Shown in pieces: positions 28,371-40,794 of a stretch of 46,358 nucleotides of DNA. Origin of the DNA: a virus (taxonomy: Duplodnaviria > Caudoviricetes); the IMG/VR virus record IMGVR_UViG_3300031820_000008, positions 1-46,358 of that record. One strand, 5' to 3'. Both the position numbers and the translations under genes were made by a program. The notes beneath the pieces were generated by a model. The model ran no database searches and had not been told where the DNA came from. It worked only from the letters and a program-made list of their open reading frames with translations. How positions within the stretch are numbered: position 1 is the first letter of the stretch; every line of letters starts with the position of its first letter.

Positions 28371-28757
28371 ATGAGCATTCTGTCCGAGATCGATGTCAAC
28401 AACGTAGACCAGATGACCGAGGAGGACCTCCGGGTACACCTCCGCAAGCTCTCCGAAGAGCGTGTCAAGCGCCAGGCCAAACAGAAGGAGTACAACGCCA
28501 AGCCCGAGCAGCAGGAGAAACGAAAGGCCTACTCCCTCAAGTACCGCACCGACCCCGAGCGCTCCGAGAAGTTCAAGGCAGCTCGTGCCGCGTACATGAA
28601 GAAGCCCGAGGTCAAGGAGCGCATGAAGGCGTACCGTGACAAGCGGAACAACGCCTTCAAGCTCCTCAAGGCCGAGGCGGAGCGGCGCGGCATCGCCATG
28701 AACGACGTCCTGGAAACCCTCCGTCCCGAACGTCAGACGGCGGCGCCGGCGGAGTAG
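28371..28757 (+). CDS. Highly charged K/R/E-rich helical protein (putative nucleic-acid binding)
   Basis: GGAGG SD; very strong codon bias; followed by a GCCC-TTCG-GGC hairpin. Confidence 0.7.
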   Translation: MSILSEIDVNNVDQMTEEDLRVHLRKLSEERVKRQAKQKEYNAKPEQQEKRKAYSLKYRTDPERSEKFKAARAAYMKKPEVKERMKAYRDKRNNAFKLLKAEAERRGIAMNDVLETLRPERQTAAPAE

Positions 28758-28823
28758 CCCTTCGGGCCGAGGGACAGCCACCTCGGCCCTACCTTTGACC
28801 CTAAATCACCGTTGGAGTTCAAA

Positions 28824-29507
28824 ATGAGACCATCCGCGATCGTCCTCGTCAGCGGCGGGCTCGACAGTGCAACCGCCCTGGGTTGGGCAACCACACAGTT
28901 CCAGCACATCCTCCCAGTCAACATCTACTACGGCCAACGCCACTCCAAAGAAACGTTCGCCGCCGAACAGCTCTGCGACCACTACGGCCTGGCTTCGCCC
29001 CTGCACCTCGACTTCTCACAGCCGTTCGCGATGATCGGCGGCTCCTCACTCACCTCAGGTAGCATCCACGGTAACCCCTCACAAGAACTCGTCGAGCGCA
29101 CGCCCAGCGATCTGCCGCCAACCTTCGTGCCCGGCCGCAACATGGTGTTTCTCGCCGCCGTAGCGGGCCTCGGCTACGTACACCGCATCTACGACATCGT
29201 CGGAGGCTGGAACGCAGTCGACTACAGTGGATACCCTGACTGCAGACCCGAGTTCTTCGCTGCTGCTGAACGCGCCCTCGGCGAAGCCCTGGTTCACCCC
29301 CTAACGATCCACACACCACTCATATCCCTCACCAAACAGGAGATCATCGAGCTCGGTACCAAACTGGATGTTCCATATCGGCTCACTTGGAGCTGCTACT
29401 CTGGAGGCGGAGCACCCTGTGGACAATGTGATTCGTGTGTCATCCGCAGGGATGGTTTCGCGGCAGCGAAGCTCCCTGATCCTGCTCTCACCGCAGCAAC
29501 TTCGTGA
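28824..29507 (+). CDS. queC: 7-cyano-7-deazaguanine (preQ0) synthase
   Basis: SGGLDS PP-loop, YGQRHSKE, TFVPGRN, GYPDCR, TWSCY....CGQCDSC..R. Confidence 0.95.
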   Translation: MRPSAIVLVSGGLDSATALGWATTQFQHILPVNIYYGQRHSKETFAAEQLCDHYGLASPLHLDFSQPFAMIGGSSLTSGSIHGNPSQELVERTPSDLPPTFVPGRNMVFLAAVAGLGYVHRIYDIVGGWNAVDYSGYPDCRPEFFAAAERALGEALVHPLTIHTPLISLTKQEIIELGTKLDVPYRLTWSCYSGGGAPCGQCDSCVIRRDGFAAAKLPDPALTAATS

Positions 29508-29523
29508 AATGGAGGTCATGCTC

Positions 29524-30123
29524 ATGCACCACCGAATCACTCAACTACAACGTCTCTTCGCCGGTCAACCTGACTGCTGGATCGCTGGCAGCTACGCCGT
29601 CGATCCCCACCAAGCCGGCGACATCGACTTGTGGCTGATCAACCGCCCCATCACCGCCGACGCGATCGCGCACTCACTGACACCCTTCATCATGGAAGGC
29701 ATTCCCCTTACAACCAGCGACGTGCCCCAGTACGAAGGCGTCCGTGACTTCAACCGCGTCGCTACCTGGTACGGACGCGGCAGCACGTACTACTTCGAGA
29801 ACGACGCCCATCGCGACCTCGACGTGCAGATCATGATCACCCAGCACGCCACCGTGAACGAGCTCCTCGCGGGCTTCGACCTCTCGTGTCACCAACAAGC
29901 CTTCTCCCTTCACGACCCCGATCACGTCGTACGCTCCGACGAGTTCACCGGCACCGGCAAGCCCATCATCATCACCCGGTTCACCACGCCGTACAGCACG
30001 ATGCGTCGCTACTTCAAGTACCAGGAACGGTACAAGCTGAAGGTCGACTGGCAATCCATCGGACGCGTCGCTTTAGCGATCGCTCACATGCAGCCCGAAA
30101 CCGTGGAGGCAACCAATGTCTGA
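29524..30123 (+). CDS. Nucleotidyltransferase-fold protein (CCA/poly(A)-polymerase head-like)
   Basis: WIAGS....GDIDLW catalytic motif, DVQIM, GFDLSCHQ and R..KY.ER. Confidence 0.65.
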   Translation: MHHRITQLQRLFAGQPDCWIAGSYAVDPHQAGDIDLWLINRPITADAIAHSLTPFIMEGIPLTTSDVPQYEGVRDFNRVATWYGRGSTYYFENDAHRDLDVQIMITQHATVNELLAGFDLSCHQQAFSLHDPDHVVRSDEFTGTGKPIIITRFTTPYSTMRRYFKYQERYKLKVDWQSIGRVALAIAHMQPETVEATNV

Positions 30124-30331
30124 CGAAGTGTTCAACTACGGAATGGGAGATGCACAGTACGCCAGCATGCAGAACCTGAAGCTGGTGCAGCCCACCTGCA
30201 AGCAGCGGATCGAGCTCGCGGTGGCGCAAGCCGAGGAACGACTCAAACAGGTGCGCCGCGCGCAGGAACTCCTCGACAAGAATCCGGACCTCCAAGAACT
30301 GATCGACATCATGGCGAGGAACCACTTCTAG
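30116..30331 (+). CDS. Hypothetical coiled-coil protein
   Basis: GGAGG SD, 71 aa. Confidence 0.65.
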   Translation: MSDEVFNYGMGDAQYASMQNLKLVQPTCKQRIELAVAQAEERLKQVRRAQELLDKNPDLQELIDIMARNHF

Positions 30332-30333
30332 CC

Positions 30334-31014
30334 ATGAACGTCGGACTGCTCTGGTGGGAGTATAACGAGCTCCTCGAGCACCTCATCTCGCGGCCCGACA
30401 TCTGGACGGAGTCAGAGGGCCAACCCGGCCTCTGGCTCCGTTCCAGTTCCGAAGGGGACGGATGTGGTGTTCTGCTCGTACCTCCCGTAAAAACCGGCCC
30501 CTACCGCCAATATGTCCTGCGGTCCGTGCCGATGACGTGGGATGCACAACGCACAGACGACTACATCCACGAACTTCTCACACACTGGACCTCCTACAAC
30601 TACCGCCTAGACCTCACCACCCTGTTCACCGAGGAGCTACACCTTGACCAACGAACAGCATCCAACGTCGCTATTGCTGCGGTTCGACTTGGGCAAGGGC
30701 CCGAGTTCGACCCGGATCACCTTCCAGAACCCACACAGTCAAACCTTGTGGACGGGGACACTGGCTTCACTCACACCGCAGGACTTAACGAACCTCTCCG
30801 ACGCGTGTTCTATCTCACCGGAGGAGGCTACGTTTGCTTTCGACCTAGCGGTGGATTGCTTACTGTCGATATTAGCGTCAAAGTACGGGAAGGATTCACA
30901 GGAGCCGGCCAGTTCTCAGGACACGTACGCCCTCGAAACGGTGATCTTCGTGGTGCCTTTACCATCCTATTCGGGGAACCCCTTACTCAACTAACACGCA
31001 CGGAGCCCGAATGA
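30334..31014 (+). CDS. Hypothetical protein
   Basis: 226 aa; fills the operon and is ATGA-coupled to the next gene. Confidence 0.6.
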   Translation: MNVGLLWWEYNELLEHLISRPDIWTESEGQPGLWLRSSSEGDGCGVLLVPPVKTGPYRQYVLRSVPMTWDAQRTDDYIHELLTHWTSYNYRLDLTTLFTEELHLDQRTASNVAIAAVRLGQGPEFDPDHLPEPTQSNLVDGDTGFTHTAGLNEPLRRVFYLTGGGYVCFRPSGGLLTVDISVKVREGFTGAGQFSGHVRPRNGDLRGAFTILFGEPLTQLTRTEPE

Positions 31015-31985
31015 ACCGACTCTGGCTCGAAGTGGAAGACCAACACCTAGTGCTGGACGGGGACGTCGACATGAACCAGTCCCGCGTCCAGATCTACAAC
31101 GACTGTCACCGGAAGTACGCGTGGCAGTTCTACCAGCACCTCACGCCCGATCGTCCGCAATGGGCACTACAGGACGGCAAGGCCGTACACGAGGCGCTCG
31201 CTCATCTCACCGCTGGCGCCCCCCTCCTCGATGCGATCCGCGTTGCCCGGAACCTGCTAGCCGAAGGCATGCCGAAGCGCAAGCTCCCAGGCGACGACAC
31301 ACTCCTGGCGGAGCACCAGGACATGGTCGCACGTCTACTCACAGCGTACCTAGACACATACGGCACCGACACAACGTGGGTTCCGTTCGCACAGGAAGTT
31401 TCCGGCCGCGTCGAAGTTGGCGAAGGCACAGGGGTATACCTTGATTTTCGTACCGATAAGTTGGCGACATGGGCACAACAACTCTGGATCGTTGACCACA
31501 AGACAGCAGCGCGCCTGGACCTTCGCGATGTTCAGAAATACGCTATGGACCTTCAGTTCACAGCGTACGTCTACGGTACGCGAAAAGTACTCCAACGCAA
31601 GGTGGCTGGAGTTATCGTGGACCTTCTCGTCAAGACGCAAACACCACAATTTCATCGTGACCTTTTCAAGCGGACCGACGATGACCTACTCGAGTTCGAA
31701 CAGGAGTTTGTTGAAGTATCCCGTGAGATAGCGCTCCGCCACCGACGCGCCGACCACGGGCAGAACTGGAAAACCGTTTTCTACAAGAACACACGGGAGT
31801 GCTTCCGTTATGGAACCTGTCCCTACCGACCCCTCTGCCTCGACGACAACGGCGTCAACCGAGCAGAGTTCGTCCTCCGTGCCCCTGACTATGTCGACGC
31901 TGCGGCCACTCCTCGGTTACCTACTGATCCAACCGGACAACTCCCAAACGTCACTGTACCAGGGTCTGATAGTGACGTCGATTAA
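31011..31985 (+). CDS. Cas4-like / PD-(D/E)XK exonuclease
   Basis: C.RKY, G.AVHEAL, E..., D......IVDHKT, Q...Y and C-terminal C.....C.Y..LC Fe-S cluster motif. Confidence 0.85.
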   Translation: MNRLWLEVEDQHLVLDGDVDMNQSRVQIYNDCHRKYAWQFYQHLTPDRPQWALQDGKAVHEALAHLTAGAPLLDAIRVARNLLAEGMPKRKLPGDDTLLAEHQDMVARLLTAYLDTYGTDTTWVPFAQEVSGRVEVGEGTGVYLDFRTDKLATWAQQLWIVDHKTAARLDLRDVQKYAMDLQFTAYVYGTRKVLQRKVAGVIVDLLVKTQTPQFHRDLFKRTDDDLLEFEQEFVEVSREIALRHRRADHGQNWKTVFYKNTRECFRYGTCPYRPLCLDDNGVNRAEFVLRAPDYVDAAATPRLPTDPTGQLPNVTVPGSDSDVD

Positions 31986-32175
31986 GTACAACCTGCCCGT
32001 CTGCGGCCTCGTCCTCGCCCACGAAGCGACTACGTGGTGGCAGGAGGGTCCAACTGTGGGGCACGTCATGTACTTCGACAAGTACAACGTCCGCTCCATC
32101 GAACTCGGAGGCATCGAGTTCTTCCTCATACCAGAGACGGCATGCCTCGCCATCTCCACGGAGCCACTCACATGA
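31891..32175 (+). CDS. groES: GroES-like co-chaperonin (cpn10)
   Basis: MSTLRPLLGYLLIQP...GLIV...P..G.VLA...VG..MYF.KY....IELGG.EFFLIPE...LAI follows the GroES pattern end to end. Confidence 0.7.
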   Translation: MSTLRPLLGYLLIQPDNSQTSLYQGLIVTSIKYNLPVCGLVLAHEATTWWQEGPTVGHVMYFDKYNVRSIELGGIEFFLIPETACLAISTEPLT

Positions 32176-32345
32176 CACGAGAAGAGCTGAAGGCCGAGAT
32201 CGCCGCACGCATCGACACCATCGTCGCCAAGCCCGGGGAACTCAGCGACGAGAACGTGGACGATCTCGTCGCTGACCTCGGGGAGTTCGTCCAGGAGATC
32301 GTGGACGAGGACGCCAACGAAGACGCAGGGGAGGAAACCGCGTAA
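32172..32345 (+). CDS. Small very acidic protein (possible DNA mimic)
   Basis: MTREELKAEIAARID...EDANEDAGEETA; ATGA-coupled. Confidence 0.6.
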   Translation: MTREELKAEIAARIDTIVAKPGELSDENVDDLVADLGEFVQEIVDEDANEDAGEETA

Positions 32346-32590
32346 TGCCCCGAATGGTCGCTGAGCCCCTGCGGCTCTTCGACGTAGAGAGCGGTCGTGA
32401 GTGGGGAGAGGTCCGCCTTGTGCGGGCCCTCTCCTTACCCCACGGCTTCGAGCTGGAGGTACGCCAGATCCGCGGCGCGTGGCAACGCTTCATGGCGTTC
32501 ACCATCGTCAAAGACCACCTGGCTTACGCCATCTTCCCGAACAACCAGGCCTCACCGCACGCCTTCGAAGGACCACAGCGCGATGAGTAA
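32345..32590 (+). CDS. Hypothetical protein
   Basis: GGAGG SD, TAATG coupling. Confidence 0.55.
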   Translation: MPRMVAEPLRLFDVESGREWGEVRLVRALSLPHGFELEVRQIRGAWQRFMAFTIVKDHLAYAIFPNNQASPHAFEGPQRDE

Positions 32591-33464
32591 CACACTTCCA
32601 CCCCTTCGTCGCACTAGCGAGAACCGTGCTCAGTGGGCAAAGGTCCTCATCTACTGCGCGGCGCGTTGGGGCAAAACGAACCTCGCCCGTACTGTGCCAG
32701 GAGGGCCCAGCAAGGCGCTGATCCTGGCCACCGAGATCGGAGACACAGGAGGACTCCAAACGCTCGGTGACGTACCCTGCGGCATGATCAAGATCACCGA
32801 CCTCACGGAGATGGGCCTCGTCCTCTCCGAACTGGAACGCCGCCAAGTGCCCCCGTCACGGGCCACTCTCGACGGTCCAGCAGGTGTGTACTACGGCGGA
32901 GAACACTTCACTACCGTGATCAACGACAGTTACACAGCCACAGTGGACGGTCCCATCTACGACGCAGCGCTCTCCAACCAAGGGTGGAACTCAGTGTGGG
33001 AGAAAGCCGATCGCAAAGATCCCCGCCAATTCTACCCCTACCTGAACGAGAAGGGCCGTCAGGTCGCCAAATCGCTAATGGCGCTGGAAGCACACGTCGT
33101 ATTCCTCTGCAGGGAAGGCCTCGTCGAGGAAGGCGAAGGACGCGAACGCCGTGTTTGGCACGCGCCCGAACTACCCGGTCAAAAGCTCCCTCGAGAGTTG
33201 CCGGGCTGGCCCGACGCCACACTTCACGGCGTCTGGGTGAACGGGCAACGGGCACTCTGGACCCGCGAACACTACAAATCGGTAAGCGGATTCCGTGTTC
33301 CACCTAACTTCGCCGTACCTGACAAGATCGTCCCGAACCTCGACCTGATCTTCCGCCTCACGCTGGGTGACAGCACCGTGTGTCGGGAGATCGCATTCAC
33401 CCCTAACAGACAGGAGGCACCGCAAACACAACTACCGTCACTGGAAACCACGTTCCGTCGCTAA
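32583..33464 (+). CDS. AAA_24 / Sak4-like P-loop ATPase (recombination)
   Basis: LIYCAARWGKT Walker A, TVINDS Walker B, P.LPGQKL...LPG..D; sits between the Cas4-like and SSB genes. Confidence 0.8.
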   Translation: MSNTLPPLRRTSENRAQWAKVLIYCAARWGKTNLARTVPGGPSKALILATEIGDTGGLQTLGDVPCGMIKITDLTEMGLVLSELERRQVPPSRATLDGPAGVYYGGEHFTTVINDSYTATVDGPIYDAALSNQGWNSVWEKADRKDPRQFYPYLNEKGRQVAKSLMALEAHVVFLCREGLVEEGEGRERRVWHAPELPGQKLPRELPGWPDATLHGVWVNGQRALWTREHYKSVSGFRVPPNFAVPDKIVPNLDLIFRLTLGDSTVCREIAFTPNRQEAPQTQLPSLETTFRR

Positions 33465-33481
33465 CACAGGAGAACAGTCAC

Positions 33482-33907
33482 ATGCCGAAACTCGAAGGTT
33501 ACAGACCCGCAGACATGTCCGAGAGCAACATGATCCCGGAGGGCAACTACCACCTCCGCTGCTCCAAGGTCACGTACTACCCGTTCAAGCCCGCCGATCC
33601 CACCAAGCCGATCAGCGAGGAGAACAAGGACAAGTCGCCGTACCTCAACGTCGACTGGGTCGTCATGGACGGCCAGCACACCGGTCGCCACGTCTTCGAC
33701 TTCGTCTCGCTGGCGAAGGGCGAGGACTGGAAGATGCGCAAGATGTGCGACGCCACCGGCAAGCCCGAGGACTGGGAAGTCGACACCGACGAGTTCGTCG
33801 ACAACGAGGTCGACGCCGTCGTCGGCAAGCAGCCGGGCAAGAAGGGCTACCCCGACAAGAACTACATCAAGAAGTTCATCGTCGAAGGGGAGCGTGAAGC
33901 CCTCTAG
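33482..33907 (+). CDS. DUF669-type single-stranded DNA-binding protein
   Basis: IPEGNY, V.DG.H.GR.VFD and KNYIKKF; Sak4-SSB synteny. Confidence 0.75.
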   Translation: MPKLEGYRPADMSESNMIPEGNYHLRCSKVTYYPFKPADPTKPISEENKDKSPYLNVDWVVMDGQHTGRHVFDFVSLAKGEDWKMRKMCDATGKPEDWEVDTDEFVDNEVDAVVGKQPGKKGYPDKNYIKKFIVEGEREAL

Positions 33908-33915
33908 TACCACGT

Positions 33916-33944
33916 GGGGGGAGGGCCTTCGGGCCCTCCTTCTC
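33916..33944 (+). terminator. Hairpin with cUUCGg tetraloop after the SSB gene (terminator or stabiliser)
   Basis: GGAGGGCC-TTCG-GGCCCTCC followed by TTCT. Confidence 0.6.
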
Positions 33945-33967
33945 ACCATTCGCAGGAGGTACGTCGA

Positions 33968-34306
33968 ATGGAAACACCGGAAGGACCCAATCGATCAGAG
34001 CCTATTGCTGACGTGGTTACGTTCCCTAGCGGTGCAAAACGGAGCGGCACCCGGCTCCGATACGACCTCATCCCCGCGTGCGCGCTCCGCCGTATCGCAG
34101 CCCGCTTTGCCCTGGGAGCAGGCGCGTACGGAGACCGTAATTGGGAACAAGGACTCCCCTTCAGCGACACCTTCAACCACATCATCGAACACCTCCTCAC
34201 ACACGCCGAACAACGCGCCAACGAAACCGACGATAACCTTGCTGCCGCCGCGTGGGGGTGCATAGCCCTTATGTGGCTGGAAGAAAACGACAAAGCCACA
34301 CCATGA
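33968..34306 (+). CDS. dATP/dGTP diphosphohydrolase-domain protein (DUF5664-like)
   Basis: SGAKR....RYDLIP..AL..IA.....GA..YG.RNWEQG.P.S...NH...HL......DD.LAAA.W. Confidence 0.8.
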   Translation: METPEGPNRSEPIADVVTFPSGAKRSGTRLRYDLIPACALRRIAARFALGAGAYGDRNWEQGLPFSDTFNHIIEHLLTHAEQRANETDDNLAAAAWGCIALMWLEENDKATP

Positions 34307-34614
34307 CATTCAACCGCTACCGCGAATCACAGCACTGGCTCATCGCGGCCCAAATAAACACGCACAACCTCGACGCACATAGCATCGTCACAAACACACC
34401 CGACGAGTTCAACACGCTCCTAGACCTATTCTTCGACGACCTGTCCGCCTTGCTGGAGGAAAAGATCAATGCGCGTCTCCTACACCTTCGAACTTCCAAT
34501 GGGCCACCGCCTTCACCGCCACAAGGGGAAGTGCCGGTTCCTTCACGGCCACAACTACCTAATCACCGTAACACTGCACGGCGCAATCGAACCAACAAGC
34601 GGAATGATCATTGA
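34303..34614 (+). CDS. Hypothetical protein
   Basis: ATGA-coupled; the C-terminal third overlaps queD. Confidence 0.45.
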   Translation: MTFNRYRESQHWLIAAQINTHNLDAHSIVTNTPDEFNTLLDLFFDDLSALLEEKINARLLHLRTSNGPPPSPPQGEVPVPSRPQLPNHRNTARRNRTNKRNDH

Positions 34615-34870
34615 CTTCCACGAGCTCAAGGAGGCGTGCCGCACCGTGTTCGACGAGTACGATCACGCCTTCTGCCTGGAAGAGGGTGATCCGTTCTTCA
34701 CACTGCACCCCAACCTTGACGAACTGAACATCAAGATCCTAGACGTCCCGCCCACGGCGGAGAACCTCGCCGTCCTCTGGCGCGACGAACTGATCGTCAC
34801 TCTCAAAGCTCACGAACGCTCCGTCCACGTGGACGTGCATGAAACACGAGATTGTGCCGCCCACACTTAG
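34469..34870 (+). CDS. queD: 6-carboxy-5,6,7,8-tetrahydropterin synthase
   Basis: GHRL..H.GKC..LHGHNY, GMIIDF..LK, DH, PTAENLA and ET motifs. Confidence 0.95.
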   Translation: MRVSYTFELPMGHRLHRHKGKCRFLHGHNYLITVTLHGAIEPTSGMIIDFHELKEACRTVFDEYDHAFCLEEGDPFFTLHPNLDELNIKILDVPPTAENLAVLWRDELIVTLKAHERSVHVDVHETRDCAAHT

Positions 34871-34878
34871 GAGTACCC

Positions 34879-35517
34879 ATGACACCCAAGAAGTACCCTA
34901 TCGCCGAGCGCTTCTATAGCCTCCAGGGCGAAGGCGTCTACACTGGTCGTCCTGCCGCGTTCCTCCGCCTCGTCGGCTGCAGTGTAGGTAAAGGCGTGTG
35001 CACGCACTGTGACACCGACTTCGACCGCATTCTGCCCGATCTGGGCGGCGGCATGTACAGCGAGCTAGACCTGCTGTACTACTGCCGCGACTACCACCAC
35101 GTCGTCCTAACGGGCGGCGAGCCCCTAGACCGTGATCTCACCTCTCTGCTACACGGTCTCATCGCCGAAGGCCACTTCGTCCAGATCGAGACTAGCGGTA
35201 CGCGCCACCCGGACTGGCTCGAGGCGTTCCCCGAAGTTTGGATCACGGTATCACCCAAGCCCGGGTACCTGCCGGAGATGATCGCACGCGCTAACGAGCT
35301 TAAAGTGATCCACAACGGTCTGGGCGAGTCCACTAACGGATGGCCTACAATCGAGGATGCTAACAGATGGGCACTCACAAAGGTCGTGTTCCTGCAACCA
35401 AGAAACTTCACGAGCCACGTGAACTTCGAAGCGATGAAGTTCGCCCAATCAGTGGTACAGAAGAACCCGGGGTTGCGACTGAGCGTACAGCTCCACAAGT
35501 TCCTCTCGGTAAGATAA
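34879..35517 (+). CDS. queE: 7-carboxy-7-deazaguanine synthase (radical SAM)
   Basis: IAERFYSLQGEG..TG.PA.FLRL.GC......C..CDT, VLTGGEP, IETSGT, TVSPK, RLSVQLHK. Confidence 0.95.
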   Translation: MTPKKYPIAERFYSLQGEGVYTGRPAAFLRLVGCSVGKGVCTHCDTDFDRILPDLGGGMYSELDLLYYCRDYHHVVLTGGEPLDRDLTSLLHGLIAEGHFVQIETSGTRHPDWLEAFPEVWITVSPKPGYLPEMIARANELKVIHNGLGESTNGWPTIEDANRWALTKVVFLQPRNFTSHVNFEAMKFAQSVVQKNPGLRLSVQLHKFLSVR

Positions 35518-36053
35518 ACCCCGCCATCATCGCAGGTGGCGTCCGTCTTATCCTGGAGGGAATCGGCGTTGACCCCTACAGCGAGCACTACCTCGACACT
35601 CCCGACCGCGTGGCGAGGATGTACACAGAACTGTTCACCCCGCCACCGGCCACTCTCGCTACGTACCCAACCAAGAACGGAGGTCTCATTGTACTTCGCA
35701 ACCACCGGTTGTTCGGCGTATGCCCGCATCACCTCCTACCCTTCGAGATGCGCGTGCACATCGGATACATCGCCAACAAATACCTCATCGGACTCTCCAA
35801 GCTCGCCCGAATCGCCGAGGCCCAGCTCACACGGCCAATCCTGCAGGAAGACTTCACGAACGCCGTCGCAGACGACCTCCAGCGCCGGACCGACGCGCAT
35901 GGATCCGGTGTCGTAGTGGCCAGCGAACACGGCTGCATGCAGTGCCGCGGCGTCCGTACCACAGGGGACATCGTCACCAGCTCTATGCACGGCGTCCTTC
36001 TCCTATTCGAAGCCCCTCGTCTCGAGTTCATGTCTATCATCGGGAGGCCCTAA
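35514..36053 (+). CDS. folE: GTP cyclohydrolase I
   Basis: TPDRVARMY.E, CPHHLLPF, GLSKLAR, LQE and HGCM.CRG motifs. Homology begins at ATA 35514, which overlaps the queE TAA. Confidence 0.92.
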   Translation: MNPAIIAGGVRLILEGIGVDPYSEHYLDTPDRVARMYTELFTPPPATLATYPTKNGGLIVLRNHRLFGVCPHHLLPFEMRVHIGYIANKYLIGLSKLARIAEAQLTRPILQEDFTNAVADDLQRRTDAHGSGVVVASEHGCMQCRGVRTTGDIVTSSMHGVLLLFEAPRLEFMSIIGRP

Positions 36054-36054
36054 C

Positions 36055-36255
36055 ATGATGTTCGGTACAGTGAAGCGTCTGGTCCGCGAAAAAGGCTTCG
36101 GCTTCATTCGCACAACCGACGGAGTCGAGTGGTTCTTCCATCGCTCCGAAGCGCGTGAGTTCGACACCATGACCGAAGGCAACCGCGTCACGTTCCAGGA
36201 AACCGAAGGCACCAAGGGACCCCGCGCGGTGGGAGTAGAACGTGTCGAAGCCTGA
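36055..36255 (+). CDS. Cold-shock domain protein
   Basis: GTVK....KGFGFI....G..FFH.S...EG..V.F....G.KGPRA..V. Confidence 0.92.
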   Translation: MMFGTVKRLVREKGFGFIRTTDGVEWFFHRSEAREFDTMTEGNRVTFQETEGTKGPRAVGVERVEA

Positions 36256-38656
36256 CACCTGTATTGGGTGCCCTCTGTACGACTCCCCCCACGCTCCTGA
36301 GATAGTGTGGGGGGAAGGGCCCCAACCAGCACAGCTCCTCATCGTCGGCGAGGCGCCGGGAGCCGAGGAACAAGCTACCCTACGCCCCTTCGTCGGTGGC
36401 GCGGGCCGCGTCCTGTCTGTGCAGCTCCGCCAAGCGGGGATCGATCGCAGCGCTGCCTATGTCACTAACGCAGTCAAATGCCGCCCTGTGGTGATGGTGA
36501 ACAAGTATGGCACGCCACAACCCGAAAACAGGCCCCCAACCGAAGACGAACTCCGGCACTGCGCCCGTTACCTCGCCCACGAACTCGATACCGTCAAACC
36601 TAACCTTGTACTCGCCTTGGGGAACACCCCCCTTTACGTTCTCACAGGCCGAACTAAAATCAGCCAACAGCGTGGAGTTCCACTTGCAGCCCCCCGAGCC
36701 GACGGCACCATCCAAAAAGTCTTCGCCACCATCCACCCCGCAGCAATCATGCGGGACCAAGAAATGTGGCCCGTCGTCATCCACGACCTCGTCAGGGCGA
36801 AGGCCGAAACGGCCTCGCCAACGATCCACCGTGTGGAAGTACAACTTGTCACCGACGCAGACCCTCTGGTTGCTGGAGCAAATCTACTCGAGCGTGCTCG
36901 TCGCACAGGCGTCGTCAATATCGACATCGAAACCACCGGCACGAGCGGAGGACTTGCGGGTGCCCTCGATCCGCGTACCAATATCATTGTCTGTGCAGCC
37001 GCTGCCACCGGACCTGATCTCGGTGAAAGTTACCGTTGGACCCCAGAGGCTGCGGGAGTCTTTCGCGCCCTTCTTGCGGACCCTCACATCGAGAAAGAAG
37101 GACAAAACTCCGAACAGTTCGACTGGGAAGTCTTCATCGCCAAAGGCTACCTGGTAAACGGCCGCACGTTCGACACGATGCAGGCGGCTCACCTCCTAAA
37201 CAGCTCCCTACCTAAGGATCTGGGCTTCCTGATGACGCTGTACACGGACATGGAGTACCACAAGAACGAGGCCCGGAAAAACCTCTACCTGTACAACGCC
37301 AAGGACGCGGTCGGGGCTCGCCGGATCGGCATTGAGCAGCGGCAGGAGCTTCGGTACTACGGGCTAGAGGAACTCTACTACAACATCGTCCAGCCCGTCC
37401 AACGCCCGCTCCGACAGATGACCCGCGTTGGATGGCGCAAGGACACGCGCCGCGCCGCCATGTACAGTCTCCTGCTCACCCGTAAGTCCGAGGAGTACAC
37501 ACAGAAGCTCATCGGCGTGTTCGGGCCGGCCCTGAACTTGGACTCGCCGCAACAGCTCATGTCGATCCTGTACGACAAGCTCGGCCTCCCGGTTCAGTAC
37601 ACGAAGGATCAGAAGACCCGCCAGATGCGCCCTACGGCCAACAAAGAGGCCCTGGACAACCTCGCCGAACTTACCCAGGACCCCATTTTCCAACTCATTC
37701 ACCGGAGGCGCAGCCTTGACAAAGCGCGAGAGACGTTCATCGAAGTCTACGAAGACGACGAAGGGTTCGTCCACCCTGAGTTTGGCACATCCACTGCGGC
37801 GAACGGGAGACTTAACAGTTGGAACCCGAACGGGCAAAACATTCCTCTCGAGTACCGTGACATTTACATCCCCGACTCACCTGCTCACGTACTTATCGGC
37901 GCTGATTGGAAGCAAGTCGAGTGGGCATGTGCGATGGTCCTCTCAGGTGACGACACAGGTCTCAGGCTCCTTGCGGAAGGTGCAGATAACCATACAATCA
38001 CCGCCGCCGAATGCTATGGAATATCAACTGATGAAGTCCTTCGCCTCGATCGCGAACACGGTGGGACGCATGGGTCGCCGCGGTTCGCCACTAAGTTCAT
38101 CGTTTATGGCCTGGGTTACGGCAGGGGTGCTAAAGACATCGCAAAGCAGCTCAACCGGCCGGTCTCGTGGGTCGAGCAGTTCATGGCCCGGTTCTTCCGC
38201 AAGTACCCGACGTACGCGCTATGGCGTGCGTGGTGTGAGAAACAAGTTGAACTGAACGCGTGCCTGATCAACCCGTGGGGACGCCGACGGTGGTGGTATA
38301 CCAAGCAGATAACCGAGATGTACAACTTCCTGCCATCGAGCACACCCGCGGACATGATGATGCAGGCCATCAAGTACACCGACATCGAGCTCCCCCGCGA
38401 AGCACGGCTCTGGGCCACGATCCACGACGACCTTACTATCTGCGCCCCCAAGGACGTAGCACGCGAGGCGTACCACTGCCTTCGGGACAACATGCGTCGT
38501 GTGTGGCGTGCTGTCCGTGACGCGTCGCAGTACCCCAAGACGGTGGACAAGTACTTCCCCGATGGTTGGTTCTGTGACGTCGACATCCACATCGGTGCGA
38601 ACTGGAAGGAATGCAAGAAGGGTAACAAGGACCTAGAAAGGAGTCTCCTGGGATGA
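36242..38656 (+). CDS. polA: DNA polymerase family A with N-terminal family-4 uracil-DNA-glycosylase-like domain and 3'-5' exonuclease
   Basis: UDG: C..CPL, IVGEAPG.EE...RPFVG.AG, TNAVKCRP, T.HPA. Exonuclease: DIETTG, FD, YNAKDA. Polymerase: GRLNS.NPNGQNIP, motif A ADWKQVE, motif B R..TKFIVYGLGYG, motif C IHDD. Confidence 0.92.
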   Translation: MSKPDTCIGCPLYDSPHAPEIVWGEGPQPAQLLIVGEAPGAEEQATLRPFVGGAGRVLSVQLRQAGIDRSAAYVTNAVKCRPVVMVNKYGTPQPENRPPTEDELRHCARYLAHELDTVKPNLVLALGNTPLYVLTGRTKISQQRGVPLAAPRADGTIQKVFATIHPAAIMRDQEMWPVVIHDLVRAKAETASPTIHRVEVQLVTDADPLVAGANLLERARRTGVVNIDIETTGTSGGLAGALDPRTNIIVCAAAATGPDLGESYRWTPEAAGVFRALLADPHIEKEGQNSEQFDWEVFIAKGYLVNGRTFDTMQAAHLLNSSLPKDLGFLMTLYTDMEYHKNEARKNLYLYNAKDAVGARRIGIEQRQELRYYGLEELYYNIVQPVQRPLRQMTRVGWRKDTRRAAMYSLLLTRKSEEYTQKLIGVFGPALNLDSPQQLMSILYDKLGLPVQYTKDQKTRQMRPTANKEALDNLAELTQDPIFQLIHRRRSLDKARETFIEVYEDDEGFVHPEFGTSTAANGRLNSWNPNGQNIPLEYRDIYIPDSPAHVLIGADWKQVEWACAMVLSGDDTGLRLLAEGADNHTITAAECYGISTDEVLRLDREHGGTHGSPRFATKFIVYGLGYGRGAKDIAKQLNRPVSWVEQFMARFFRKYPTYALWRAWCEKQVELNACLINPWGRRRWWYTKQITEMYNFLPSSTPADMMMQAIKYTDIELPREARLWATIHDDLTICAPKDVAREAYHCLRDNMRRVWRAVRDASQYPKTVDKYFPDGWFCDVDIHIGANWKECKKGNKDLERSLLG

Positions 38657-39405
38657 AACTCGCTCTAGAAATCCCCGTCAGCATGCTCCCGGACATTATT
38701 CCGCTCACGGACATGAGTTTCACGCTAACACACATGGTCCTCCAAAACGACACTTACCGGGAGTTCTACGAACACCACAACCGACATCACGGCGACTGTA
38801 TCCTTGACAACAGCATGCACGAACTCAATCACCAACCTATGACTCCTGAGGACATCCTGGAGGCGGCCTCGGCCATCCGTCCCACATATATCATTCCGCC
38901 GGACACTCTCGGCGACTCCAAGTATACGTGGGAGGCGTACAAACGCTTCACGAAGCAGGCTCACGGCCGATACCACCTGATGCCTGCGATTCAGGGAAAG
39001 GACTACATCGAACGACGCGATCTGTTCCGACAGTACTGTAACGTCGGCGCTGCAGCCATCGCTCTGCCGTACCGTTCGCCGCGGCTCGACACGTTCCGTC
39101 AACTGTTACACGAGGTCGGAACTGTCCGCCGCGCCTGGCCAGGGAACGGACGGATTCACCTCCTCGGTATGAACACAATAACCGAGCTCATCGAGTTCCG
39201 CAACATCTTCGTTGACCTCGACTGGCCACGTGACTTCCTTAGCCTCGACACAGCGAAGCCAATCAAGTGGGGTCTACAGGACCGCCTTCTGGAGAACCTG
39301 CAAGACACCCACGGAGGAGGACTTGTGCCGCCTGATGTAGCGAACTGGACATCGCACGACGCCGCAGTCTACCGAAACATTGCGTACCTGCGCAAATTCC
39401 TATGA
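38653..39405 (+). CDS. TGT-fold protein, candidate divergent DpdA (7-deazaguanine insertion enzyme)
   Basis: ILDNS..EL, IPPD.LGD, MPAIQG, IHLLG and SLDT motifs, in the order seen in tRNA-guanine transglycosylase/DpdA folds; clustered with queCDE-folE. Confidence 0.65.
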   Translation: MKLALEIPVSMLPDIIPLTDMSFTLTHMVLQNDTYREFYEHHNRHHGDCILDNSMHELNHQPMTPEDILEAASAIRPTYIIPPDTLGDSKYTWEAYKRFTKQAHGRYHLMPAIQGKDYIERRDLFRQYCNVGAAAIALPYRSPRLDTFRQLLHEVGTVRRAWPGNGRIHLLGMNTITELIEFRNIFVDLDWPRDFLSLDTAKPIKWGLQDRLLENLQDTHGGGLVPPDVANWTSHDAAVYRNIAYLRKFL

Positions 39406-39414
39406 GCCCCATCT

Positions 39415-40794
39415 GTGCCGTCCAACATACCGCTCTCACAACAGATCTTTCTGTTGCAGAGGCATCTAGAGCTGCATGCCGACAGCACCATGTCGGACCC
39501 GAACTTCTCCACGATCACGGAGTGGGTCCGTCAAGTCCCACCTGCGGCACGGTCAGCCTCCCTCACGGAGCTACTGTGTCGGAAGTTTCACATCACAGAG
39601 GAGGCACTGACACACCTACTCAACACAACCAACCACCGCAGCGACTTCGACTCACTCGTACCACGTAACGGATACTTTCGTGACTACATCGAATTCACGC
39701 GCACAACAGAACCACCAACGGTCTTCCACTTTTTTGTGGCCGCAACCACGCTTGGGACTACCTTGGCTCGTAACGTTCGGTTCAACAAAGGCTCCTACTT
39801 CGTCTTCCCGAACCTTTGCTGTGTACTGGTCGCTCCTTCGGGACGGTGTCGTAAAACGAGTGCTTGTAATATCGGTGTATCACTATACCGATCCATTGGC
39901 GGAACTATACTCGCAGACAAAACAACGCCGGAAGCGCTGGTGGAAGCCTTTCGCGATGCCACCTCCGCAGTGGGACTACTGTACGCGCCTGAGCTTGCAG
40001 TGTTCCTGGGGAAGCAGAAGTATCAGGAGGGTATGGTACCTCTACTAACGTCGCTGTTCGACTGTCCCACGGAGTGGAGCAGCAAAACGATCGGTCGGGG
40101 CGACGCGCAGCTGCACAACGTCGCACTCAGTCTGCTCGCCGCTTCCACAATGGACTGGATCCAAACCGGCATTCCGCGTGACGCCTTCGGAGGGGGCTTC
40201 ATGTCACGCCTTCTGTTCGTAATCCAGAACGACACTCCGCGCAGCTTCCCGTTGCCCCCACCTATGGACGAGACGCTACGCGCTCAGCTCCTAACCCTGT
40301 TACGTGAGGCACAGGACTATCGCGGGGAGTTCACGATGAACCCCGCAGGAAGGATTTGGTATGAGGACTGGTACAACGAGCGTGCAGACAATCGTGTTGA
40401 TGAGAGACACTTTGCCGGATATTACGAGCGTAAGCCTGACCAACTCATCCGAGTGGCTATGCTACTGGCCGCAGCCTCAGGCCATGACCAGACACTCACC
40501 CCTGAGCTACTACAACATGGGCTCAATATACTCGATCACCTGGAACTCTCCCTGCCTGCTGCCTTCGATTCTATGGCTCAGAATGCAGTCGGGGAAGATA
40601 CCTCCCGTCTACTAAAGCAACTCCGTAACCGTGGCGGTCAACTCGACCACAGCACGTGGCTCCGCCTTAACAGCAGCCGTATGAACGCCCGTCTGTTCCG
40701 TGAAGCCGTCGATACACTCCGGCTCGCAGGCTTCGTGGAACAGGACGTTAAGACGCATCTCTACTATCTCACGCCGGAGGGCTGGAACCACTAA
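39415..40794 (+). CDS. DUF3987-type P-loop helicase (replication)
   Basis: TEPP..FH, PNL..VLVAPSG.CRKT, TPEAL, ELAVFLG, LT.LFD, AAST..W and GGGF.SRLLFV motifs. Confidence 0.75.
   Translation: MPSNIPLSQQIFLLQRHLELHADSTMSDPNFSTITEWVRQVPPAARSASLTELLCRKFHITEEALTHLLNTTNHRSDFDSLVPRNGYFRDYIEFTRTTEPPTVFHFFVAATTLGTTLARNVRFNKGSYFVFPNLCCVLVAPSGRCRKTSACNIGVSLYRSIGGTILADKTTPEALVEAFRDATSAVGLLYAPELAVFLGKQKYQEGMVPLLTSLFDCPTEWSSKTIGRGDAQLHNVALSLLAASTMDWIQTGIPRDAFGGGFMSRLLFVIQNDTPRSFPLPPPMDETLRAQLLTLLREAQDYRGEFTMNPAGRIWYEDWYNERADNRVDERHFAGYYERKPDQLIRVAMLLAAASGHDQTLTPELLQHGLNILDHLELSLPAAFDSMAQNAVGEDTSRLLKQLRNRGGQLDHSTWLRLNSSRMNARLFREAVDTLRLAGFVEQDVKTHLYYLTPEGWNH

Follow-up and report, generated by a model that had tools for sequence, protein, structure and literature searches.

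How a phage could replace nearly every guanine of its genome, and whether the exchange would be made in finished DNA or on free nucleotides, is the question raised by a set of genes in IMG/VR virus record IMGVR_UViG_3300031820_000008. The window analysed here is this whole record of 46,358 bases (completeness estimate 96%), a tailed-phage genome in which the minus strand encodes terminase, portal and capsid proteins and the plus strand bears a replication arm. Seven intact open reading frames (ORFs), all on the plus strand, form the module in question: queC, a gene for a DUF5664 protein, queD, queE, folE, polA and a TGT-fold gene that we assign to dpdA3. A preliminary description of this DNA had suggested that such a set could make a deaza-dGTP, destroy dGTP and incorporate the analogue with the phage polymerase, instead of exchanging bases after replication. 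The stretch also occurs in two public DNA runs, both recorded as soil metagenome and one of them perhaps its source; within 28700-39500 their contigs have no differing letters in the parts that they cover. The phage is an uncultured one from soil.

The TGT-fold gene is assigned to DpdA3

The gene at 38653..39405 (plus strand) overlaps the stop codon of polA as ATGA, and both this coupling and the TGT fold given in the preliminary description were borne out. As a single sequence the product had no match in Pfam, NCBIfam or the PDB sequences. A word-indexed search returned only two relatives besides itself, and tblastn over 50,697 phage records brought 15 matches, one in Weizmannia phage Youna2 and the other 14 in records of Campylobacter phages. 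The tblastn match to YP_009169190.1 of phage CP220 (25.9%, E 6e-8, over 83%) is to a protein entered as DpdA3 in sheet DS1 of PMC10516641. With a profile, 2,643 representatives were reached at E <=0.001. An AlphaFold model built on an alignment of 133 sequences had a predicted local distance difference test score (pLDDT) of 95.7 and replaced an earlier three-sequence fold that scored only 66.8. Its best Foldseek match was DpdA 7ui4 (E 6.9e-7), and VIA-align gave Z values of 16.4-16.2 over ~222 residues to archaeal TGT, bacterial TGT and DpdA. The protein thus has the TGT TIM-barrel with its acid/base Asp, guanine-binding Asp plus His and nucleophile Asp. Residues D52, D84, H169, G172 and D199, which match the TGT/DpdA catalytic set, are invariant in 14 DpdA3 and 5 DpdA1 rows, and K2, H27, Y35, N53 and E57 are near-invariant within DpdA3 only.

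Several comparisons place the protein within the DpdA family. By hhalign the window profile matched phiST DpdA3 (CGPG_00065) at 99.2% (E 1.3e-19), and the protein matches phrog_20335, the phiST family. The value for CAjan DpdA1 was only 2.5%, with the catalytic motifs nonetheless in register. The DpdA1 motifs DSGAF/DSSSW are not in the window protein, which has DNSxHE and DT instead. A quick tree of 43 rows separated the window protein and five named DpdA3 proteins from nine DpdA1 proteins with support of 100 and put the window protein in a 20-row sub-clade (support 96) without an isolated member. Judged by its sequence, the gene encodes a DpdA3 and not a DpdA1. Other candidate separators of the two subfamilies were rejected. 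Net charge, isoelectric point and the Zn motif showed no difference (the Zn motif is in 0/12 DpdA1), and the short C-terminus (51-68 residues as against 94-103 in four of five aligned DpdA1) fails for phi47:1, the DpdA1 of which likewise has 52 residues beyond the nucleophile.

An ESM Atlas neighbour cluster of 455 residues and 110 viral members aligned structurally with the window protein over 234 residues (TM 0.78). As 93% of its members carry AAA_28, it is likely a DpdA3-kinase fusion. A dedicated search for longer DpdA3 fusions found none, which is weak evidence; it did not recover the 455-residue cluster.

Precursor genes and the predicted base

Family matches confirmed the preliminary calls of queC, queD, queE and folE, and of a DUF5664 gene upstream of queD. 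QueC (28824..29507; PF06508 E 5.7e-61; TIGR00364 176 bits against a cut-off of 150) has the PP-loop, YPDCR and the Zn cysteines, and its ATG at 28824 is preceded by GGAG. The gene sits 4.5 kb upstream of the remaining module, separated from it by recombination and replication genes. QueD (34469..34870; PF01242 E 4.6e-28) keeps the CxxxHGH motif and is therefore not the DpdL decarboxylase paralog, the motif of which is given in PMC10516641. QueE (34879..35517), a radical SAM protein, matched phrog_2076 (E 1.9e-27), with the NCBIfam QueE models below cut-off, and FolE (35514..36053) matched PF01227 (E 2.2e-40).

The sequence has no ATG, GTG or TTG where relatives of folE start. The codon there is an ATA that overlaps the queE stop (ATAA, 35514-35517) and is identical in both public runs; as read from the DNA, folE probably starts at this ATA, or else at an upstream ATG (35367). 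In all 24 rows of the window's clade the iron-sulfur motif of QueE is Cx6CxxC (CSVGKxxCxxC), and the usual Cx3CxxC is seen in L176, L198, Youna2 and Bacillus phage BSP7.

Nothing in the whole record exceeded threshold for QueF (PF14489), and the QueC ORF of 227 residues leaves no Gat-QueC fusion, both as the preliminary description had it. ArcS and QueF-L were absent from the 47 window ORFs in general family scans, which did not use their own models. With QueC present, a CxxxHGH QueD and no QueF, the gene set is neither that of the dDG (DpdL) systems nor that of the preQ1-derived (QueF, DpdM, DpdN) systems. CP220 has the same listed set (FolE, QueD, QueE, QueC and DpdA3, no QueF) and its base is 100% dADG (PMC10516641), which makes dADG as plausible as dPreQ0. 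The earlier default prediction of dPreQ0 thus loses its priority while staying possible: by analogy the modified base may be dADG or dPreQ0.

Extent of guanine replacement

Three DpdA3 phages, CP220, phiST and immuto_2-6A, have 100% of G replaced, and DpdA3 is the only DpdA subfamily tied to complete replacement, DpdA1 and DpdA2 being partial (PMC10516641). The DpdA1 systems of 9g, CAjan and iggy share with the window the precursor pathway, TGT fold, catalytic residues and a dpdA by the polymerase gene, but modify 0.1-30% of G (PMC10516641), form a separate clade (support 100) and have neither DUF5664 nor the phrog_761 kinase in 12 records. Because the window protein is a DpdA3 and the three analysed DpdA3 phages are fully substituted, near-complete replacement of G by dADG or dPreQ0 is probable in the window phage, by analogy with those isolates.

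G-containing 6-bp palindromes are less under-represented in the window's clade (median observed/expected 0.91, n=24) than in phages that share its replication block without que genes (0.775, n=16); five DpdA3 isolates gave 0.88-1.03 and ten DpdA1 loci 0.53-1.02. These statistics lend weak support to extensive G modification and hint at broad protection, not at a mechanism, because the loci are related, short and different in GC and host.

One phage lineage with DUF5664 in a fixed slot

A scan of viral contigs gave 37 loci which, with the window and four isolates, fell into 29 groups when DpdA3 was clustered at 90% identity; the window's clade accounts for 24 of these groups. The conserved order is PD-(D/E)XK, AAA_24, DUF669, a small gene, queD, queE, folE, polA, dpdA3 and DUF3987, with polA and dpdA3 adjacent in most of the clade; an initially low QueC count (8/29 groups) was traced to a flank artefact. 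In the window the conserved replication/recombination block of PD-(D/E)XK nuclease, Sak4-like AAA_24 and DUF669 genes (31011..33907, plus strand) marks the start of the modification slot, and a DUF3987 primase/helicase-like gene (39415..40794, plus strand; PF13148 E 4e-13, phrog_14296 E 2.2e-31) closes it. The family A polymerase gene polA (36242..38656; PF00476 E 1e-44) encodes an N-terminal family-4-like uracil-DNA glycosylase domain (PF03167 E 1.4e-26), which the preliminary description had not mentioned, and a 3'-5' exonuclease domain.

From the polymerase side, 80 loci were kept of at least 580. Every locus with a PolA of at least 39% identity has que genes, plus dpdA3 where the sequence reaches that far. 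In a quick PolA tree the window-clade polymerases form one clade (24 rows, support 100), with the DpdA3-positive L176 and L198 as sister clade (support 96). Remoter phages have the same replication block without que genes and are called sisters below. In all six large slot genes scanned among these (L145, L146, L150, L167, L186, L194), a ParB-fused N6/N4 DNA methyltransferase occupies the slot upstream of polA. Methyltransferase and que genes thus alternate in one position, and the slot is therefore an exchangeable DNA-protection cassette.

The window's slot gene (33968..34306, plus strand) encodes a DUF5664, dATP/dGTP pyrophosphohydrolase-family protein one ORF upstream of queD. It matched phrog_801 (E 1.5e-15) and, on the longer ORF 33914-34306, PF18909 (E 5.6e-15; 55.6 bits against a curated cut-off of 27), and its ATG at 33968 has GGAGG upstream. 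No solved structure matched it. Among the 21 groups with a visible slot, 16 have DUF5664 as the gene between DUF669 and queD (one partial); three further groups are cut off there. In the remaining five groups (L005, L021, L037; L034; L038) one of three unrelated small proteins stands in the slot. A whole-record PF18909 search covered 51 records (50 loci picked from 79 planned, long contigs favoured) and found the domain in 11 of 18 clade records, three of the seven misses being fragments that start inside the cluster, and in none of 12 sisters and none of 12 DpdA1 phages. Surveyed from the DUF5664 side, 25 of 35 loci had que genes and two were clade fragments without visible que genes. The distant L229 (PolA 25%, DpdA3-like by hhalign at 98%), which branches next to the window clade (support 82), has a 47%-identical DUF5664 relocated between queE and folE.

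A family of about 75 residues (KYRxGQxEHGGDL, DEAVDQVVYLL; 21 proteins) substitutes for DUF5664 before queD at L021:5024-5281, L005:4702-5004 and L037:5137-5574 and is a candidate new nucleotide-pool enzyme. Some replacement proteins have an acidic E-x-x-D-like helix which, on what we take to be the MazG motif, recalls MazG-type enzymes, although homology was not found. One replacement protein (S1) had no PHROG match below E 0.004.

Kinase- and hydrolase-like genes beside dpdA3

In each of the three isolates with full substitution, a P-loop kinase-like gene and a gene resembling nucleotide hydrolases stand no more than four genes from dpdA3: gp057 (AAA_28) and gp055 (HD) in CP220; gp203 (AAA_28) and gp208 (PRA-PH/MazG-like) in immuto_2-6A; CGPG_00066 (P-loop motif, weak phrog_139 match, E 8.9e-4) and CGPG_00068 (MazG-like) in phiST. 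Among 80 immuto-like loci (50 groups at 90% identity), 32 groups have at least 3 kb on both sides. With profiles built from the isolates, a kinase was found within 5 kb in 32/32 of these and a hydrolase in 26/32.

The window departs from each of these arrangements. CP220 is 177 kb long and its dpdA3 is flanked by an HD plus P-loop gene and the AAA_28 kinase-like gene, whereas the 46-kb window has DUF5664, no kinase, and its que genes, polA and dpdA3 in one run. In immuto_2-6A (100% fdPreQ1) and phiST (100% dDG), DpdA3, que genes and a hydrolase-like gene are clustered as in the window, in immuto_2-6A together with PolA. These phages differ in having QueF plus DpdN, or DpdL without QueC, a P-loop kinase-like gene, and MazG/PRA-PH-like hydrolases in place of DUF5664. 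The isolated DpdA3 phages BSP7 and Youna2 come close, with QueC, QueD, QueE, FolE, DpdA3 adjoining PolA, and PD-(D/E)XK and AAA genes upstream, but a thymidylate-kinase-like gene (phrog_761) lies directly upstream of dpdA3, DUF5664 is lacking and the order is dpdA3-polA. The P-loop kinase near dpdA3 in CP220, immuto, BSP7 and Youna2 thus has no equivalent in the window, and the window clade speaks against any rule that DpdA3 always comes with a kinase.

A proposed exchange on free nucleotides

In the route that we propose, FolE, QueD, QueE and QueC would make preQ0 or its amide ADG from GTP. DUF5664 would hydrolyse dGTP to dGMP and pyrophosphate, both draining dGTP and supplying substrate, and DpdA3 would exchange guanine for the deazaguanine on dGMP by TGT double-displacement chemistry, with D199 as nucleophile and D52 as acid/base. 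Phosphorylation to the triphosphate would fall to host guanylate and nucleoside diphosphate kinases, just as dZMP is handled by host enzymes, and the phage PolA would incorporate deaza-dGTP, such that a 7-deazaguanine would replace most G residues, or all of them, and shield the DNA from restriction. A variant would be direct exchange on dGDP or dGTP, which would also explain the missing kinase. The reasons for favouring the nucleotide level are the DpdA3 membership, the hydrolase and kinase genes beside dpdA3 in all three isolates, the fixed slot of DUF5664, its retention among the que genes of L229 and the occurrence of its subtype in a PurZ-type cluster (L230). From these we infer that the base swap is made on free nucleotides and give this reading an even chance, the sequence of DUF5664, DpdA3, host kinases and PolA being its most specific form. 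ADG nucleoside has been reported in the cytoplasm of CP220-infected cells, with citation of earlier work (PMC10516641). A modified-dGTP route is mentioned in PMC6884629 as proposed for Campylobacter phages and was later set aside in PMC10516641.

Z-genome phages Wayne and Ghobes (PMC12884076), which have DUF5664 or DutZ plus DmtZ, PurZ and DpoZ, resemble this proposal. There DUF5664 converts a dNTP to the deoxynucleoside monophosphate (dNMP), the deoxyribose-5-phosphate is moved onto a non-canonical base, host kinases finish the work and a family A polymerase incorporates the product. They differ in the base and in using the nucleoside deoxyribosyltransferase fold rather than the TGT fold. The window itself does not qualify as a Z genome by PurZ or DpoZ: no PurA/PurZ was found among its 47 ORFs, and the DpoZ model gave 40.7 bits on the window PolA against a cut-off of 500.

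Several observations weigh against exchange on free nucleotides. On the enzyme side, all 7-deazaguanine insertion has been concluded to be post-replicative in PMC10516641, and the literature searched, mostly without subscription journals, showed no TGT-fold enzyme acting on a free nucleotide. On the hydrolase side, the one assayed stand-alone DUF5664 had a kcat ten times as high on dATP as on dGTP (PMC12884076), and homologues occur in 277 isolated phage records, 231 of them of Propionibacterium/Cutibacterium phages. Eight of the 35 loci of the window's subtype lie elsewhere, without a que gene within up to 8 kb, and DUF5664 is absent from all nine other DpdA3 records. Its link with dpdA3 comes essentially from a single lineage (24 rows, support 100), which makes the counts non-independent. 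The proteins that replace it showed no hydrolase homology (hhalign to DUF5664 0.5%, E 0.12; no PDB match). MazG (PF03819) was found in 1/18 clade records, 3/12 sisters and 1/12 DpdA1 records, and also in phiST, and no named hydrolase or kinase lies within 10 kb in L158 and L170.

The kinase evidence points the same way. The window record had no phage kinase match and no Walker A outside the AAA_24 gene. AAA_28 was absent from all 21 virus records searched, L176, L198 and L229 included, and phrog_139 gave one full kinase (L034) and one C-terminal-only match in 18 clade records. The phrog_761 kinase was in none of the 18 clade records, in four of nine other DpdA3 records and in 0/12 DpdA1 records, and it also occurs in three of 12 sisters. 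Of the arguments first advanced for a nucleotide-level route, polymerase adjacency had to be rejected as a diagnostic, a DNA polymerase gene lying within about 3 kb of dpdA in seven of 12 phages of DpdA1, a subfamily with partial modification (one of them has a deoxyribosyltransferase gene nearby). The mere presence of the hydrolase likewise fails as an argument, since DUF5664 is common in phages without que genes and, where assayed, prefers dATP. The co-occurrence survey proposed at the outset did give DUF5664 in the clade and in neither DpdA1 phages nor sisters, within the single lineage just noted. The nucleotide-level suggestion as a whole gains from the gene being DpdA3 and from the fixed slot, and loses by these two weak arguments and by the lack of an encoded kinase.

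Alternative readings

The strongest alternative is a post-replicative or replication-coupled exchange, in which DpdA3 would be a sequence-independent DNA transglycosylase working on newly made DNA, and DUF5664 would have come along with the replication module as an enzyme that sanitises or balances nucleotide pools in general. Every characterised TGT or DpdA acts on a polynucleotide with the same catalytic residues, the roles of which are given in PMC10164549. The ATGA coupling and adjacency to polA would fit an enzyme at the fork, DpdA1 genes standing by polymerases too; the absence of a phage kinase in the clade, the wide occurrence of DUF5664 without que genes, and the failure of Zn motif absence and short C-terminus to separate DpdA3 from DpdA1 all agree with it. 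What it leaves unexplained are the kinase- and hydrolase-like flanks of dpdA3 in the three isolates and the immuto-like groups, the absence of both phrog_761 kinase and DUF5664 from the 12 DpdA1 records, and the DUF5664 that stays with the que genes in L229. Moreover, DpdA3 activity could not be shown in E. coli, whereas that of a DpdA2 was (PMC10516641). We rate this reading as a real contender that falls somewhat short of an even chance.

Partial G modification in the window's DpdA3 sub-clade, or a weak pathway in the window phage, would overlap with the other readings. The 20-row sub-clade without an isolate, the non-standard folE start and the window's palindrome ratio of 0.85, at the low end of the clade, are consistent with it; the last also counts against our proposal. 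Conversely, all ORFs are intact with catalytic motifs, every clade member with enough sequence keeps que genes and dpdA3, and hosts generally supply FolE. We therefore think it unlikely.

Least probable, to the point of being only an outside chance, is a mixed route in which DpdA3 would act on DNA or nucleotides and the slot protein would recycle or re-phosphorylate, for instance as a T7 gp1.7-like phosphotransferase replacing the kinase or salvaging modified nucleotides: L176 and L198 have DUF3310, implicated in T7 gp1.7 nucleotide kinase activity (PMC9339283), between folE and polA without DUF5664, and one replacement family matches the C-terminal part of a dNMP-kinase PHROG (E 1.2e-4), but the assayed DUF5664 released dNMP and pyrophosphate (PMC12884076), and DUF3310 is also present in immuto and in one of the 12 sisters, which lack que genes.

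Other genes of the window and of related loci

Directly after queC, ORF 29368-30123 has no Pfam or NCBIfam match and relatives in 3/29 groups; presumably its GS...DxD motif is nucleotidyltransferase-like. ORF 30334-31014, between queC and the nuclease gene, is conserved and clade-specific, with no family or usable Atlas match. A GroES-like gene at 31810-32175 is kept in 12/29 groups (weak matches, E about 0.006), and no GroEL was seen among the scanned window ORFs. The cold-shock domain protein at 36055..36255 (plus strand; PF00313 E 7.1e-15) is an optional passenger present in four of 29 groups. Promoter and terminator scans of the window gave chance-level results.

Related loci carry further nucleotide-metabolism genes. 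L230:270-8281, one of the eight DUF5664 loci elsewhere without que genes, encodes a synthetase which we take, from its motif, to be of PurZ type, along with PolA, an HD protein and a DUF5664 that belongs to the window's subtype (38% identity), and is apparently from a Z-genome phage. In L189:6276-12400, dpdA3 stands between ribonucleotide reductase and adenylosuccinate synthetase genes, next to polA; the canonical GDEGKG motif led us to reject this PurA as a PurZ, and it could recycle displaced guanine or balance pools. Phosphoribosyltransferase genes lie inside the que cluster in two clade groups and immuto (L014:5615-6223, L020:4928-5506, L043:9834-10229), and ThyX is also in the que cluster in L014 and L025. 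In L154 and L156 the place of the window's deazaguanine genes is taken by genes for kinase, dUTPase and dCMP deaminase. An Acb2/Tad1-type anti-defence hairpin domain (PF24729 E 8.9e-8) is encoded between queE and folE at L018:6214-6408.

Implications

The published account of DpdA3 is post-replicative, but the tests of its activity in E. coli were unsuccessful (PMC10516641). New here is the kinase-less, DUF5664-bearing variant of the DpdA3 module, the pre-replicative idea itself having been proposed before; the literature searched, mostly without subscription journals, neither described an active DpdA3 nor placed DUF5664 in a deazaguanine cluster. The window clade matters because the kinase that accompanies DpdA3 elsewhere is removed, which narrows the question to two small enzymes, DUF5664 and DpdA3. 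We put forward, tentatively and with less confidence than the route itself, that DpdA3 may be a TGT fold moved from polynucleotides to free deoxynucleotides and that the clade may have a G-replacement pathway in minimal, pre-replicative form, as a guanine equivalent of Z genomes. Such a minimal pathway would need no more than six small genes to write a genome with full G substitution. If DpdA3 does work on nucleotides, the TGT fold would gain a new class of substrate, and whole-base substitution would have a second pathway beside Z. The set, if it works, would offer a compact means of making restriction-resistant, non-canonical DNA in laboratory strains.

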